Positions 18,001-24,000 of a stretch of 64,000 nucleotides of DNA are shown in pieces. Numbering within the stretch: the first letter of the stretch is position 1; each line of letters opens with the position of its first letter. Made by a program: the position numbers. Source of the stretch: a plasmid; the sequence record NZ_KX443399.1. One strand, written 5' to 3'.

Positions 18001-21000
18001 GGGATGGCTTCGCTGAGCACGACGGAGTCACTGAGCGGAAGCGAACCGGCGCACAACGTGCTTCAGCTCCCGCTACAGGTGGCACCCGCGCACCTGACCT
18101 GCGACTGCGGCAGCGCGTGGTGGGACACGAGCGTGTGCATCGAGGACGGCAAGGTCACCGGGTACAGCGTGCCCGTGCGCTGCACCAGCTGCGGCCGCCA
18201 AGCCTCGACCTGACCGAGCTCCGACAGACGGCCGGCGAAGGGCCGACCACCCCACGGTGGTCGGCCCTTCTGCTGTCTCGGGCTACCCGCCGGGCCAGAG
18301 GCTGACGAGATCCTGCAACCAGCTCACCCACGGAAGATGATTCACCGCCACGTCGACGACGATCTCGCCGACGACGTCGCGCACCACTTCCTTCGCGATG
18401 GCGCCCGCCTTCTCGGTCCTGCTCATTCCATCGTGATCCCGCATGATGCGTTCTCCTCTGTGAAGGGGATCGCGGACCGCCACGGATCGCGACAGTCCTT
18501 CCCCCTCTTCTGGCGTGGGAGGGGAAAAAGCCCAGTGCGCCCCCGAAAATGAGCCACCTCGACGATTGCGCCGCGCCACCACCCGGTTGTCACTTAGCAA
18601 GCACAGCTTGTAAGGTGGACCCATTGGAAGCGATCTGCCCCGCAGTCCGCGGGTGCCGGCAGCAGGCCAGATCAGAAATGGCCGCGAGAAACAGGGGGTG
18701 AACAGGATGAACGACACGTCCCGCGACGCAATCGTCCTCGCGCTGCCTCTGCGTTGGCCCGCTGACCGCGATGCCTTGGCGCGCACCCACATCGGTGGAG
18801 GGGACGTGTCGTCTTCCCAGTACGATGCCCCTATGTGTCGCTCGAAAGCTCACGGAACTGGCCGCCGCTGCCCCGGTTGTGGCAGCTACGGGGCCGCCGC
18901 GAAGGCCAACGCGAACCGCCGGCTCGGTCGCGAGGCCCGGAAGAAGGTCGTCGACCACCTCAAGGAACAGGGGCTGGTCGAGTCCGCCGCCGCCATCCAG
19001 GCGGCGCCGCCGAGCGTGCTCCAGGAGTTCATGGAAGGACTCGGCATCGACCCCGAGATCCTCGGCAAGACCCCGATGCCGAGCACCCACGCGAACCCGC
19101 CCAGCGCGAAACTACTGATCGCGCAGGCGAAAGCGGAGCGCGAGAAGCTGGCCGGCCCGAAGATCACCCCGGCCCAGGCCGCTCTCGATGAGGCCGAAGC
19201 GAACGCCGTCAAGGCTGACGCCGAGGCGGAGGAGGCAACCAAGACCGCCAAGAGGCTCCGGGCGCGGGTCACCACAGCCAAGCGGAAACTCAAGGAGGGC
19301 ACAGGCACCGAAGAGACCGTCGCGGAGAAGCAGAAGGACTTCGACGAGGCCAAGGCCGCCGCGTTCGACGCGCAGCGCCGCCAGTCCGAGGCCCACGACG
19401 ACCTCGCGGCCGCGAAGTTCGGCATGCGAGAGGACATGGCTGACGAAGACCGTGACGCCTACTACGCCTCGCTGTCCGACGACGACGTCGCCGCGATCAG
19501 CCGGTCCCTGAACCGCAAGTACGCGGACGAAGCAACCGAGGCGCTGGCCGAGGGGCCAATCGTCTCGCCGGCCGGAATCGAGCGCGACACCAGCGTCTAC
19601 AAGTCGGGGAAGATCCCGATGGAAACAGGATCGGGTGTCGAGGAGGCCGAGGGCCGCTACCTCGACGGCGGTACCGCGATCGTGCGCCGGGGGTCCGGGG
19701 ATTTCGTTGTCCTCCAGCGCAAGGGCGACGCCTACCACCCGGTGGCTGTAGCGAACGGTAAGCATGACGCCCTCGCCAAGGCCAACCGCATCCCGATCCT
19801 GGTTGAGCCCGAACCGCTGCCGGCCAACGCCACTGAGATGCAGAAGCAGGCGCACTCGGTGAAGGGAGATGCGCTTCTCGCGGTCGCCAGCGAAGCGGCA
19901 GCCGGCAAGGCGTCCACCACAGCCGCGCAGCAGAAGGTCATCAACGACGAGCTGGCCGGCGCGCACGAGAAGATGACCGACTCGATCGGCGCCGGCCCGG
20001 TCCGCGCCGACATCTACGACGGCACCAAGCGTCACCAGAAGCGCATGCGCGAGCTGGCCGCTGTGCAGGCCGGCGAGAAGGCCCGCGCCGACGCACTCGC
20101 GGCCGGCAAGACGAAGGTGCAGGCCGATCAGGCGTACGAGAGGGCCCACCGCCGCGCACTCGGCACACCGACCCGCGGCGGCGGCGTGATCCCGCACTTC
20201 GAGCACAAGATCCCGCCGGAGAGCCTGGGTGCCGAAAAGCACGCGTCCCTGCACCGCAGCGGTATCCGCGCGTTCGGCAAGGAAACCGCCGACGACTACG
20301 CGGTGATCCATCAGCGGGCCGGCGACCTGAAAGCGTGGGGATTCTCGGTCAGCGGGCAGAAGGTGCACACCTCCGACCTGTCGAAGCTGACGGCGACGAA
20401 CTCGGCATTCGTGAAGAAGGTGCTCGACTCTTCCGAGCGCAGCGCGCTGACGACCTACACCGGCGGCAGCTACCACTCGATCAACGCAGCGATCACCGGG
20501 CGCGATCCGAACCCGGCCGCGTCGACCAAGTCAATCGTCAGTGGCATCGAGTCGGCGTTCGACAAGTTCAACGAGCACAACCCGAACAACGAGCCGATGA
20601 CCGTCATGCGCGGCACCCGGGTGCCCAGTGGCTGGAAGGGCACCGCGGCCGAGTACATCGACCAGGCGTTCACCGTCGGCTCGAAGGTGCAGATCGGCAA
20701 AGTCACCTCCACGACGACCCGCCAGGCCACCGCGCAGGGCTTCACCGGGCACCCGCCGTACATGATGGTCATCCGCACCCGCAATGGCCTTCCGGTGAAG
20801 TCGATCTCGATGTACAAGAGCGAAGACGAGGTCATCGTCCCCACCGGCACCGAGCTGCGCTGCGTCAAGGTCGACCACAAGGGCATCAACGGAGTCCCGA
20901 CCGTGTGGCTCGTCGCCGAAGACCTGGTCGCCGAGGCCGACGGGTCCCCGTCGCCACTGAAGTCCGTCGCATAGCCTGAAAAATGTACATCTAGCTGGGG

Positions 21001-24000
21001 ATACGACACGTCCCCTTATCGAGAGAAGGCCACCATGAGCGGCAAACTGAGCCAGGACCAACTCGACGACATCCGTGCCCATCTCAAGCAGGGAATGTCG
21101 CCCAGGGAAGTCGCGGACTACTACGGCCGCGTCGCAGACCTCGACCTCATCGAGATCGCACGTATCCGCACTGCCGCATACGAAATCGAGCAAGAGGAGC
21201 AAGCGTGACAGCACCGGCAACCAACGACGCCGCCCAGCGCGCCCGCTACGGCAACGCCCTGAGCGGTCTCGCGGCCGGTGACGCCTGGGGCTACCAAGTC
21301 GAGTTCACCTCGTACGCATCCATGCCGGCCTACCCCGTGGCCGCGCCGGCAGGGGAGTGGATCGTCAGCGACGACACCCAGATGACCCTCGCGCTGCACG
21401 ACGCGCTCGCCGAGGTCACCGACTTCGACGACATCCCCGCGGTCACCGACGCGATCGTCCGCCACTTCGTCCTATGGCAGGTCGACCCCGACAACAACCG
21501 GGCACCGGGTCGCGCGTGCATGGGCTCGCTGCACCGGCTGCGTGCCGGCGCCCGCTGGTACGACAAAGACGGCGCGCGTGAATCCGCCGGCTGCGGCGCC
21601 GTGATGCGTCTGGCACCAGCTGCTTTCGCGCCGGAACCGTACTGGCCCGGGCTGACCGCGCTCCAGGCCGTCATCACCCACAAGCACCCGCGCGCCATCG
21701 TGCCCGCGCTGCTGCTAGCCGACGCGATCCGGCACGCCCCCGACCGCGGCGGCCTGCTCCTCGAGCACGCCCTCGCCGAGGCCGACCGGATCTACGCAGG
21801 CACCAGCGACTGGCTGACCGATCCGTACCTCGCTGACGTCCTCGCCCCCTACCGAGGGGACGTGTCATCTGTACTGGTAGACGGCCTGAATGATGATGTC
21901 GTGGACCTACTGAACGTGGCCGCTGAGGCCCGGGACCGGCTCGACCAGCTTGACCCCGCCGACTTCGGTGACCCGTGTGCCGGCATCGGTCAGGGCTGGG
22001 AGTCCGCCAGCGCGATCGCTCTCGGCCTGCTGGCCGCGGACCTCGCGACGTCCCAGGGTGGAACAGACACAGCACCTTTGACCGGGCCCGAAGCGCTGGC
22101 GTGGGCGGCCACCAGCAACGGCGACTCCGATTCCATCGCGTGCATCGCCGGAGCGGTCATCGGCGCCGCGTACCCAGCGCCGGACTACTGGAGCCTGTCG
22201 GGCCTGACGCCTCGGTTCGAACCCCGCTACGCCACCGAGATCGCCGCGGCCGCCGGTCAACTGCCCGGGGCGTCGTCGGCAGAGTGATCGCAGGGGCACA
22301 CCCCGTAGGTGAAATGGGGCGTGAACTGCGACGATGACACGTCCCCCTTTCCTGAGATGGATAGGGAGGCGGCGAGATTCGTCGCAGGAGAACCACCCAC
22401 AGCAAGGGGGAGAAGATGCAGCCGACATTCATGGGAACCATCGGCGCCGCGATGGTCATCGGAGGCGTCCTCGGGATCGTCTGGTCGCGGCGTACAGCAG
22501 ACAAGCGCAGCCGCGACGCGACCTACTTTGTCTACGCGTGGGCCTCGGTCGCCGTCTGGTTCGGCGCCCTGCCGATCATCGGCTCGATCGACGACGTCGC
22601 GGTCCTGCCGGCCAAGCTGCGCGACATCCTCTACGCCCTCGTGCTGATCGGCGGCCTAGCCGCGACCCTGTGGTTTGTCGCTGCGGGAATCCGGGCCCGC
22701 CGCAGTGAGTTCCGCGAACTCCAGCGCCGGTACACCGACGCAGGGCGCACACCGCCGCGGTACTTCTGGCGGCCCTGGGCCATCTTCAGCTGGACCCTCG
22801 GCCTGGGGTCGGTCGTCGTCATCGGCGGCGGCGTCGCGGGCGCTTCCCTCGTCGGGGCGCTGCTCGACAACGCGACCGCCGACGAGGTCGACCGGACCGC
22901 GCAGAACATCGCGAACCAAGGGCGACAAGGTCGACCTGATGAGCGACGAGGATGTCACCAAGTTCATCACCGAGCAGTACGCGAAGATGTGCCAACCGGT
23001 GGCCGGGTACGACCTGGTGTTCACGCCGGTGAAGTCGATCTCTCTGCTGTGGGGTCTCGGCGACGCCCAGGTGAAAGAGGCTGTCGAAGAGGCACACAAG
23101 CAGGCCGTCGACGAGGCCCTCGCGTGGATCGAGGACGAGGTGATCTACACCCGTCGCGGGGCCGGCGGCGCCCGCAAGGTCAAGGCCGAGGGGCTACTGA
23201 TCGTACGGTTCGACCACTTCGACAACCGTGTCGGTGATCCGAACCTGCACACCCATTCCGCGATCCTGAACCGGGTACTGGCAGAGGGAAAGTGGACGAC
23301 GATCGACGGCCAGGTGCTCAACAAGGCGAACGTTGCTGCGTCGGAGCGCTACAACACGCGCGTCGCCGATCTGGTCGCGCGCAAGCTCGGCGTCACCTTC
23401 GCCCCGCGCCCCGATACCGCCGTCGGCAAGCAGCCGGTGTACGAGGTCGAGAGCATCCCTGTCGGGCTGCTCGAGGAGTTCTCGCGGCGCGCCCAGATCG
23501 AGGATCGACAGGCCGAACTCGCACGCGAGTACAAGGACAAGTACGGCAAGAACCCGCCGAAGAAGGTGCAGTACGCGCAGGCGCAGCAGGCGACGCTGGA
23601 CACCAGGAACGCGAAGAACCCGCCACGGTCGTTGGCGGAGTTGCGCGCCGAGTGGCGCGAGCGCGCGTCCGCGATTCTCGCGGGCTCCGACCCCAGCACG
23701 CTGGTCGACGAGGTGCAGTCGGGTCGCGATCGGCGCCCTGCGTTCTACGCCCCGCAGCTACCTGCTCTCGTGCAGGAAGTGACCGACGATCTTTCGCGCA
23801 AGGTCGGTTCGTGGACCGTCTTCTCGCTGCAGGCGGAGATTCAGCGTCGGCTGCGAGAGTTCAGTTTCGCGGGCGAGATGGACGTCAACGAGTACGTCTC
23901 GGACGCGGTCGATCTCGCCGTCCGCGACTACTGCCTTCCTACCTTCACCGAGGTCTACGACGCACCGGAGAGTGTCAGCGAACGCGTCGAGCGTGGGCTG

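Follow-up and report, generated by a model that had tools for sequence, protein, structure and literature searches.

A putative three-component reversible ADP-ribosylation cassette in the conjugative plasmid backbone of Mycobacteriales

A 64,000-nucleotide (nt) stretch of the plasmid record NZ_KX443399.1, which corresponds to positions 30285-94284 of NZ_AP024199.1 and is hereafter called the window, carries a cassette of three adjacent genes encoding a 713-residue ADP-ribosyltransferase (ART), a 57-residue acidic protein and a 360-residue ADP-ribosylglycohydrolase (ARH). All three open reading frames (ORFs) were found where a first-pass annotation of the sequence had placed them (Table 1). Our best reading, which is tentative and to which we give somewhat less than an even chance, is that they form a cytoplasmic cassette for reversible arginine ADP-ribosylation belonging to the plasmid backbone of Mycobacteriales. 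ART-ARH writer/eraser pairs are already known, and both enzyme domains are ordinary Pfam members that have been annotated as such, the RefSeq names of the three products being "ADP-ribosyltransferase", "hypothetical protein" and "ADP-ribosylglycohydrolase family protein". The novelty lies in the architecture of the 713-residue protein, whose head and central domains are undescribed, in the presence of an acidic protein as third component, in an eraser that is loosely linked, in the Mycobacteriales plasmid-backbone context and in the link to a wider set of proteins that share the head. In line with the earlier remark that this architecture was uncharacterised, no publication on the cassette, experimental or other, was found in the literature searched, which did not cover the original description of the plasmid type, pVAPN, to which the window belongs.

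Table 1. Coordinates of the cassette, of its domains and motifs, and of the copies of the repeated 26-nt motif in the window.
Feature	Position	Strand	Evidence or remark
ART gene, 713 residues, start MCRSK	18833..20974	+	RefSeq "ADP-ribosyltransferase", Pfam, conserved start
N-terminal module, residues 1-105	18833..19147	+	Homology, isolated model
Long acidic coiled-coil-like helices, residues 113-239; least conserved part of the ART protein	19169..19549	+	AlphaFold2, alignment
Conserved central beta domain, residues ~245-320, five strands + helix	19565..19792	+	AlphaFold2, alignment
Helices 335-443, then pre-ART region 444-519	19835..20389	+	AlphaFold2, alignment
R-S-ExE ART domain, residues ~520-704	20390..20944	+	Pfam, alignment, AlphaFold2/Foldseek
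ART landmark Y542	20456	+	Sequence
ART landmark R593	20609-20611	+	Sequence
ART landmark S626-T-T	20708-20716	+	Sequence
ART landmark E664-D-E666	20822-20830	+	Sequence
Small acidic protein gene, 57 residues	21035..21208	+	ORF call, homologues
ARH gene, 360 residues, GTG start	21205..22287	+	Pfam, conserved motifs
ARH metal/active-site motif GDAWGYQVEF	21277-21306	+	Alignment to DraG
ARH metal/active-site motif SDDTQM	21367-21384	+	Alignment to DraG
ARH metal/active-site motif NGDSDS	22117-22134	+	Alignment to DraG
Membrane-protein ORF 3' of ARH	22416..22917 (conserved part)	+	Homology to Rhodococcus counterparts
Motif copy F, yTGAcCwGs..arAy-GACACGTCCCg	18691..18723	+	110 nt upstream of ART start; inverted relative to G
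Motif copy G	18800..18838	-	Core ends 22 nt before ART ATG; extended part overlaps start codon
Motif copy H	20989..21015	+	60-nt gap between ART stop and small ORF; core ends 19 nt before ATG
Motif copy I	21856..21894	-	Inside ARH gene, codons 218-230, GDVSS...
Motif copy J	22311..22346	+	24 nt 3' of ARH stop, 70 nt 5' of membrane-protein ORF
Further motif copies	1-11, 173-183, 1430-1440, 1577-1587, 7793-7803, 46504-46514		Core matches
Further motif copies	46808-46818, 48521-48531, 50493-50503, 54105-54115, 54555-54565, 61397-61407		Core matches

The carboxy-terminal domain of the 713-residue protein carries both the signature and the fold of an R-S-E class ART. It matched the Pfam families ADPrib_exo_Tox (PF03496; residues 524-682) with 39.0 bits against a cut-off of 23.4, and ART (PF01129) with 29.9 bits against a cut-off of 22.3. 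The landmarks YTGGSYHSIN, VMRG (R593), S626-T-T and E664-D-E666 are in place; an alignment of 54 homologues reaching down to 43% identity shows no exchange at R593, S626 or E664 and a conservation of at least 90% at E666. The full C3/Vip2/ScARP-type R-S-E signature that had been claimed for this domain was thus confirmed. Further, a family profile searched against the sequences of the PDB matched ExoT with the R, STS and ExE elements aligned. The ART fold was also recovered by structure prediction: an AlphaFold2 model of the protein (predicted local distance difference test score, pLDDT, 86.8; predicted template-modelling score 0.71) gave 70 matches at E ≤ 1e-3 in a Foldseek search of the PDB, the best 50 of which were all ARTs or ART-fold proteins, with target-normalised template-modelling scores of up to 0.72. 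At the top stood ExoS/ExoT, the ART-ARH pair of Listeria (8za7), Tre1 (6drh/6dre), C3, Plx2a, CDTa, Certhrax, Vip2 and iota, and no DNA-targeting enzyme of the pierisin/ScARP type was among these best 50 of 70.

An ExE motif in the ADP-ribosylating toxin turn-turn (ARTT) loop is typical of arginine-directed enzymes. From this motif, family knowledge and the fold neighbours, the acceptor is predicted to be a protein arginine; a guanine or RNA target is less likely, because of the ExE motif, the arginine-type ARH described below and the nearest folds. No DRAT (DraT-family) Pfam match was obtained for the ART protein. Likewise, tblastn of the ART in 50,697 phage records gave no match at E ≤ 1e-5. 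Among phage protein families, PHROG 802, "Alt-like RNA polymerase ADP-ribosyltransferase", was matched at E = 1.8e-7, covering residues 525-599 only, and fold matches in BFVD were found in the mycobacteriophages Onyinye and Gumball and in a MuF-ART protein of Microbacterium phage Percival.

The eraser is equally recognisable. The DraG/ARH-family assignment made at first pass was borne out by the Pfam model ADP_ribosyl_GH (PF03747), which matched residues 18-323 with 128.8 bits against a cut-off of 26.2, and by intact metal-ligand motifs, which are invariant in six ARHs of four genera (those of Prescottella, Rhodococcus and Dietzia and of M. avium). The site is not identical to that of DraG, since the position equivalent to D97 is an alanine in the HMMER alignment. 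Among PDB sequences, DraG was the best match (1.7e-11), followed by human ARH1 (4e-7) and Tri1 (8e-5), and the nearest relatives of the enzyme by sequence are thus three characterised arginine-specific hydrolases, not ARH3. The scores against the equivalog models of DraG (TIGR02662, 41.6 bits vs a cut-off of 337) and Tri1 (NF041672, 28.8 bits vs a cut-off of 490) are far below their thresholds, which indicates a separate subfamily. As had been noted before, the stop codon of the small ORF overlaps the GTG start of the ARH gene; the TGA and the GTG share the sequence GTGA, and ARH is probably translationally coupled to the small ORF.

Homologues of this ARH (35-48% identity; PHROG 22100, E = 2e-66) also occur without an ART in phages and prophages of Gordonia, Rhodococcus and Mycobacterium, where they may counter ADP-ribosylation. 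Such stand-alone genes include gene 84 of prophiFSIL01-1 (locus L052), gene 115 of Gordonia phage ObLaDi (L053) and those in 25 other phage records. In L052 and L053, a small Cys-rich ORF stands before the ARH gene, abutting or overlapping it.

The full-length ART family comprises approximately 87 cluster representatives (E<1e-140), all of 650-780 residues and all from Mycobacteriales, namely from Rhodococcus, Prescottella, Nocardia, Mycobacterium (avium and marinum), Mycolicibacterium, Gordonia, Dietzia, Tomitella and Aldersonia, and it is confined to plasmids and mobile elements of this order. Linkage was surveyed in 36 related genomic loci and several plasmid loci, searched with all neighbouring proteins; 34 of these loci carry the full-length ART type. 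A homologue of the small ORF lies directly 3' of the ART gene in 29 of the 34, all mycobacterial ones included. On a Dietzia plasmid (L004) the annotated ORF after the ART gene aligns as a divergent relative of the small ORF, and in L005, which has an ART of a divergent subfamily, the small ORF at this place is unrelated and Cys-rich. An ARH was found within 10 kb of the ART in 16 of the 34 loci (all main-type Rhodococcus/Prescottella loci, Dietzia and Aldersonia). Rhodococcus, Prescottella and Dietzia loci keep the ART-small ORF-ARH trio in synteny, and the Aldersonia ARH lies upstream on the opposite strand. No ARH was detected within 10 kb in the Mycobacterium, Mycolicibacterium and Nocardia loci, in which the ART is catalytically intact and the small ORF is kept.

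At the scale of whole replicons the association is closer: 28 of the 33 ART-bearing plasmids in PLSDB carry an ARH homologue, the other five being four plasmids with the divergent ART subfamily and CP017300, and in two M. avium plasmids a 61% identical ARH lies ~65 kb from the ART. The proposal of an ART-ARH module therefore stood as far as co-occurrence well beyond this plasmid is concerned, but not with ARH as an obligate partner. We conclude that the functional link of writer and eraser exists replicon-wide, that ARH is no obligatory antidote, and that the steady companion of the ART is the small ORF. Conversely, an R. fascians plasmid has an intact ARH and no ART, and two R. opacus plasmids have amino-terminally truncated ARH matches and no ART. 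In the draft genome of Rhodococcus sp. SMB37 (L007:12476-13558) the ART is intact and the ARH gene is frameshifted twice, once exactly at an embedded copy of the repeated motif described below, which could be pseudogene decay or a homopolymer sequencing error. A second, shorter ART paralogue (~42% identity, residues ~207-703, with a degenerate MC...RRC amino terminus) was also observed in L034-L038 and L040, ~35 kb from the main copy on the same Mycolicibacterium/Mycobacterium contigs; it had no small-ORF homologue, and the only ARH sequence detected within 10 kb was a partial match at the L035 edge.

The small protein has a predicted isoelectric point (pI) of 4.6 and a net charge of -5, and its homologues (55-62 residues) are more acidic, with a pI of 4.0-4.1 and net charges of -8 to -10. 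It had been treated as an incidental helix-turn-helix (HTH) protein, yet it is the almost constant companion of the ART. As regards its fold, the amino-terminal half is weakly HTH-like: PHROG 517, "HTH DNA binding protein", gave a weak match (E = 1.3e-3) covering residues 4-31 only, and Pfam DUF433 matched below its cut-off (E = 0.029). No significant Pfam or NCBIfam match was obtained, and the segment expected to form the recognition helix reads ADLDLIEI, so that there is no basic recognition helix. Since the protein is strongly acidic and its HTH matches are weak and partial, we do not accept an HTH regulator as shown; from its composition, it looks more like a small acidic binding partner. 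A role as partner of the ARH was also considered and discarded, because the ORFs preceding phage ARHs are Cys-rich and unrelated, and because mycobacterial plasmids keep the acidic ORF beside the ART with no ARH nearby.

Outside its catalytic domain, the ART protein has a composite architecture. Some gene callers use an alternative in-frame ATG at 18707, which would yield 755 residues; that extension is not conserved, and MCRSK at 18833 is the conserved start. The amino terminus then reads MCRSKAHGTGRRCPGCG, and, as stated at first pass, it lacks a Sec-type signal. Searches with Pfam, NCBIfam and fold comparison identified no known secretion or trafficking domain amino-terminal to the ART domain. 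The AlphaFold2 model comprises a helical N-terminal module (residues 1-105), acidic helices (113-239), a five-strand beta domain (257-307) and further helices (335-443), followed by a very conserved mixed region (444-519) ahead of the ART domain, with the motifs ...GTPTRGGGVIPHFxHKIPP...SGIRAxGKETAxDY...AWGF. The ~400 residues between the head and the ART domain are conserved along with the latter. A coiled coil of ~450 residues had been proposed here; the long helices 113-239 are indeed coiled-coil-like, but residues 110-520 do not form one coiled coil, as a conserved beta domain lies inside them. The proposed zinc ribbon fared similarly: three amino-terminal cysteines (C2, C13 and C16 only) are invariant, but a confident ribbon fold with four ligands was not obtained (residues 1-20 have a pLDDT of 50-62 and no strands in the isolated model), and the zinc ribbon is unproven. 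Paralogues of the module retain two cysteines only.

The N-terminal module is also found in other proteins. It consists of the cysteine knuckle, an Arg/Lys-rich helix and a small helical bundle, with a pI of 9.8; the isolated model (pLDDT 80) shows the bundle, with the knuckle poorly modelled, and no PDB fold match was found at E<1. The window contains neither a second such module nor a second ART domain. In the mycobacterial loci, a second gene located 1-2 kb 3' of the ART gene starts with a 54-62% identical copy of the module (~105 residues) and carries a WhiB-like Cys motif at its end. When the 105-residue module was searched exhaustively with HMMER, 57 proteins were retrieved, ART proteins among them. 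In the WhiB-like fusions, the helical part of the module is present in one to three copies; other proteins join the module to a PI3/PI4-kinase-like catalytic motif (GxQDRHxxNYLV...LIDHGFAF), and in a single case it is fused to an Mrr-type restriction endonuclease domain (E = 3.7e-29). The kinase-type proteins come from Nocardioides, Arthrobacter, Propionibacteriaceae and many metagenomic actinobacterial contigs. In two long contigs the order is ParA - ParB - GmrSD_C - X - X - x - N-module protein - small ORF - Rce1-like, which mirrors the order around the ART in pVAPN (ParA - ... - DUF2637 - X - X - cutinase - GmrSD_C/HNH - x - x - ART - small ORF). The ~97-residue ORF after the kinase-type gene is unrelated to the 57-residue acidic protein, which suggests that the downstream small gene changes with the carboxy-terminal domain. 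Toxin-antitoxin (TA) or abortive-infection genes (PemK, AbiEi/AbiEii, GmrSD_C) lie near some loci that encode the module.

The WhiB-like fusions were observed on mycobacterial plasmids (L003:12184-12954, L018:13919-14695, L019 and L030; proteins P0102, P0105 and P0110), and in M. avium the fusion gene is directly upstream of the plasmid ESX locus (eccA-eccB-eccC). The kinase-like and Mrr fusions are those of L043, L044, L050 and L051 (proteins P0136, P0142-P0145 and P0111); a small ORF of its own comes after each of them. The idea that the module reads the repeated 26-nt motif was rejected, since L005 encodes the module and has no motif in 20 kb, and the kinase-type loci lack the motif as well.

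The five copies of this motif, F to J, that had been reported around and within the cassette are all real. The consensus, derived from 96 distinct instances in related loci, is a 26-nt asymmetric sequence, yTGAcCwGs..arAyGACACGTCCCC, with an A-rich patch ~10 nt further upstream. Its core, GACACGTCCCC, occurs 15 times in the window with at most one mismatch, as against 3.2 expected, and none of 100 shuffled sequences reached 15; five of the 15 fall in the cassette, which makes up 5.7% of the window (binomial P = 0.0011). The further copies are mostly intergenic, and several are antisense at the 3' ends of plus-strand genes (the copy at 7793 at the end of rep, and those at 1430 and 54105). The positions of the copies within the cassette are conserved: in six loci of Rhodococcus, Prescottella and Nocardia (L007, L008, L009, L026, L039 and L042) the 10-mer core of copy G precedes the ART ATG by exactly 32 nt, an equivalent of copy H on the plus strand stands 30-45 nt before the small ORF in seven Rhodococcus loci (L006, L007, L008, L009, L013, L017 and L039), and the position of copy I is kept in nine Rhodococcus loci. 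The peptide encoded at copy I is not conserved in the ARHs of Dietzia, M. avium or R. fascians. Plasmid loci of Rhodococcus, Nocardia and Mycobacterium have the motif as well, among them the M. avium locus where the ARH stands apart.

We regard the motif as a backbone-wide regulatory element, and its arrangement suggests separate control points for the ART gene and for the small ORF/ARH pair. A standard promoter, a terminator or a known RNA was rejected as its identity, because no sigma-70-type promoter or terminator-like sites were detected at 18000-23000 and there was no Rfam match. An internal GGGGA/TCCCC hairpin is not conserved among the copies, and the inverted pair of F and G would allow a long-range RNA stem that is marginal (z = -2.0). 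A candidate reader is the sigma-70-family factor that the plasmid itself encodes (59983-60510, plus strand). This protein has 175 residues, the size of an extracytoplasmic function sigma factor, and its gene adjoins a CopG-family ribbon-helix-helix gene (60703-61224).

The 3.8-kb cassette region is 99.9% identical to pVAPN-type plasmids of Prescottella (Rhodococcus) equi, which agrees with the earlier description of the source as an actinobacterial conjugative element. pVAPN is an invertron-like linear conjugative plasmid whose housekeeping backbone resembles that of pNSL1 of a soil Rhodococcus, the vap pathogenicity island having been acquired, and a TraB-type translocase has been reported for it (PMC5434932). 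The cassette sits in the high-GC backbone, upstream of the low-GC vap island (~30-44 kb), and it is also found on soil Rhodococcus plasmids such as pNSL1 and kept in the divergent pVAPN1572. It is part of the plasmid backbone and not of the virulence island, and is therefore an unlikely explanation of the host tropism of R. equi.

Upstream of the cassette lie genes for two probably secreted proteins. The first is a 671-residue cutinase-family protein (14400-16415) of the fold class of mycobacteriophage LysB esterases, whose gene is syntenic with the ART in Rhodococcus and Nocardia loci; the second is a GmrSD_C/HNH nuclease-domain protein (16663-17415) with an amino-terminal hydrophobic signal-like segment. 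Downstream, a membrane-protein ORF (22416-23237), which has no RefSeq annotation on this plasmid, is conserved 3' of the ARH gene. Its homology to Rhodococcus relatives stops at residue ~167, the point at which mobF (22939-26145) begins in a different frame; mobF is intact here and split in pVAPN1572. Because the homology of the membrane protein ends exactly at the start of mobF, the MobF relaxase region looks like a pVAPN-specific insertion, and in none of 40 other loci was a relaxase found within 10 kb of the ART. The idea drawn from this adjacency, that the cassette belongs to a leading region with early-entry anti-defence genes, was rejected as a general explanation: a relaxase neighbour is specific to pVAPN, for which a TraB-type translocase is reported, and the argument for a leading region is thereby removed.

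In the reading that we prefer, the 713-residue protein would use nicotinamide adenine dinucleotide (NAD+) to mono-ADP-ribosylate an arginine of a conserved bacterial protein by means of its ExoS/ExoT-, Tre1- and C3-type domain, and the basic N-terminal module would bring it to where it acts, which would most plausibly be DNA or the transcription apparatus. The small acidic protein would be a cognate partner, most likely a stoichiometric inhibitor or a chaperone that restrains the ART in the plasmid-bearing cell. ARH, co-translated with it, would erase the mark, keeping the modification transient and limiting self-damage, and the motif copies before the ART gene, before the small ORF/ARH pair and after the ARH gene would tie expression to a plasmid-wide control shared with other backbone genes. 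The net role would be control of the host in the service of the plasmid (establishment after transfer, addiction or competition with mobile elements) rather than animal virulence. A cytoplasmic action is suggested because the ART protein has no signal peptide, because its head domain is common to WhiB-like factors and because neither the small protein nor ARH has a recognisable export domain; in particular, repeats of the module on WhiB-like domains would be sensible only inside the cell.

Several points weigh against this reading. Every functional step beyond the identity of the domains is inferred, namely the arginine acceptor, the cytoplasmic site, the roles of the N-terminal module and of the small protein, and the biological purpose. 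Many lineages do without ARH, which would mean that the ART is harmless or that the small protein is enough to control it. The latter could also have quite another function, for instance as a regulator or a DNA mimic, and a DNA or transcription tether is a guess from the charge and the fusion partners of the N-terminal module, for which no structural relative was found. Exported polymorphic toxins, too, are marked by a constant head with variable enzymatic carboxy termini, each accompanied by its own small gene. Finally, the motif is absent from the ART loci of Dietzia and from the divergent ones of R. pyridinivorans, and by its sequence it is not a recognisable promoter, with a TGACC-to-CGTC spacing of 13 nt and several copies running antisense into genes.

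If the N-terminal module were a trafficking domain that brings the ART to a conjugation pore or to a type VII or type IV apparatus, the enzyme would be an exported effector that enters recipients or neighbours, with the small protein and ARH shielding the producing cell and its kin, and a similar trafficking role of the module would apply to the kinase-like and nuclease paralogues. Known counterparts exist in the Tre1-Tri1 pair of the type VI secretion system (T6SS) of Serratia proteamaculans (6drh/6dre) and in the Listeria monocytogenes pair (8za7), which likewise combine an R-S-ExE ART with an ARH-family eraser as effector and immunity protein; both ARTs are among the best fold matches, and Tri1 is a detectable relative of the plasmid ARH. 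The polymorphic-toxin pattern of the head points in the same direction, as do transfer-associated neighbours, since the M. avium ART adjoins ESX-P and its Rhodococcus counterparts have the secreted cutinase-family protein and a DUF2637 protein nearby. Orphan ARHs on plasmids and phages without an ART resemble orphan immunity genes, and actinophages fuse the ART fold to portal or MuF proteins believed to be injected with DNA. However, the cassette differs from those two pairs in several respects: its ART spans 713 residues and several domains, begins with a novel N-terminal module and has no known trafficking domain; a small acidic gene, the third of the set, separates writer from eraser; in some lineages the ARH gene lies elsewhere or is missing; and the context is a conjugative plasmid backbone instead of a T6SS or type VII secretion system (T7SS) toxin locus. 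Neither a known secretion domain nor a signal peptide was identified in the plasmid ART. Further, no T7SS lies beside the gene on Rhodococcus plasmids, the ARH misses the Tri1 equivalog threshold (see above), a head that precedes WhiB-like factors in up to three repeats fits an export signal poorly, and the 400 residues from head to ART domain are conserved with the latter, unlike in typical toxin cassettes. We therefore consider export unlikely, although it is the main rival of our reading.

An abortive-infection or other anti-phage role, in which the ART is held by the small protein, the N-terminal module possibly acts as a sensor and infection frees the enzyme to modify a host or phage protein, would assign the plasmid ARH to limiting auto-immunity and the phage ARHs to counter-defence. 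The ARH relatives of lytic phages of Gordonia and Rhodococcus and of prophages of M. abscessus, all without an ART, fit such an anti-ART function, TA and abortive-infection genes are among the neighbours mentioned above, and the swapping of effectors on a constant head is common in defence systems. DarT-DarG, ParT-ParS and CmdTAC likewise place a potentially toxic ART beside a reversing or blocking gene on mobile DNA; unlike DarT and ParT, the plasmid ART is C3/ExoS-like, its eraser is an ARH and not a macrodomain, and the ART gene comes first. No TA-family model matched the cassette proteins. In PADLOC-DB v2 the small ORF and ARH had no match and the ART a spurious coiled-coil one only (E = 0.068), so that none of the three proteins has a matching defence model and this explanation lacks direct support; the cassette also occupies a syntenic backbone slot rather than a variable defence island, the WhiB-like fusions of the head are not defence effectors, and the phage ARHs could equally counter phage-borne ARTs. 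We regard it as distinctly unlikely. Little chance is given to a nucleic-acid acceptor, with the module binding DNA or RNA, the ART modifying a base or a terminal phosphate as ScARP/pierisin, CmdT or DarT do, and ARH reversing this. R-S-E enzymes that modify guanine or RNA exist, ARH3-type hydrolases can take phosphate-linked ADP-ribose off nucleic-acid ends, and the module is basic and contains cysteines; but the ExE motif is conserved, the nearest structures (those among the best 50 of 70) are all protein-modifying, the ARH is nearest to the arginine-specific DraG, ARH1 and Tri1 and not to ARH3, and the known guanine-ADP-ribose erasers are NADAR proteins, not ARHs. The chance is slim that the pair is a benign switch that toggles a single plasmid or host enzyme upon a signal, with no part in conflict. 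DraT-DraG follows the same logic of a writer and an ARH-family eraser, DraG is the best PDB sequence match of the ARH, both enzymes are kept with intact catalytic motifs, and the ART is tolerated without an adjacent ARH on many plasmids. The plasmid writer, however, is not of the DraT family, its ARH falls far short of the DraG equivalog, no nif or other metabolic partner gene is linked, and the distribution is confined to mobile elements. An R. equi effector directed against mammalian macrophages in the manner of SpvB or ExoS is very unlikely, close to negligible. It would suit a gene on the virulence plasmid of an intracellular pathogen with ExoS/ExoT as nearest folds, and ExoS/ExoT and the C3/Vip2/iota/CDTa group (PF03496) do share the catalytic fold and the R / S-T-S / ExE signature. 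Those enzymes are secreted against eukaryotic targets with type III secretion signals or binary-toxin adaptors, whereas the plasmid ART has neither and brings a bacterial-type eraser with it; the same trio also occurs on soil Rhodococcus, Dietzia and Nocardia plasmids, and the cassette lies outside the vap island.

Beyond the cytoplasmic reading that we favour, the N-terminal module may define a family of actinomycetotal plasmid "establishment effectors", an extension that we consider improbable. The head would bind plasmid DNA or motif-bearing promoters, the ART would act on or travel with incoming DNA and modify an arginine of RNA polymerase or of nucleoid proteins in the recipient, and ARH would reset the host after establishment. 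Interchangeable domains (R-S-E ART, PI3/4-kinase-like, Mrr nuclease and WhiB-like) would share a slot by the partition genes, each with its own small partner. The ART would then be the conjugative-plasmid counterpart of phage T4 Alt and of the actinophage MuF/portal-ART fusions. With T4 Alt/ModA/ModB and these fusions it has in common that a mobile element carries an arginine ART of the same fold class, and a plausible common purpose would be the take-over of the host upon entry of foreign DNA. Unlike them, the plasmid ART is not fused to a virion protein and is accompanied by an eraser, and its co-delivery with DNA is unproven.

Three repeat structures elsewhere in the window were also recorded. 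In the low-GC vap island there is a tandem duplication of 79 nt (40351-40508), "perfect" in the sense of 99% identity, with internal inverted repeats. Short in-frame repeats with a 15-nt period, GACGACGAGGCTGCC, encode an acidic run at 11712-11794, at the junction of the gene for the DUF2637 protein (10408-11613) with the next gene. A second in-frame set, with 39/78-nt spacing, lies at 57845-58206 and encodes Asp/Gly-rich repeats of the GDG..IDT type that resemble calcium-binding repeats.

Reversible ADP-ribosylation is an emerging currency of the conflict between bacteria, phages and plasmids. To our knowledge, almost nothing is known of how the conjugative plasmids of Mycobacteriales, among them the virulence plasmids of R. 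equi and the large plasmids of M. avium and M. marinum, handle their host cells. The cassette is conserved in at least nine genera with clean catalytic signatures, and it offers a testable set of one writer, one eraser and one small partner. The common N-terminal module indicates a larger, so far unexplored group of plasmid effectors, which includes kinase-like, nuclease and WhiB-like fusions, and the target of the ART would reveal a host process that is manipulated by Mycobacteriales plasmids.

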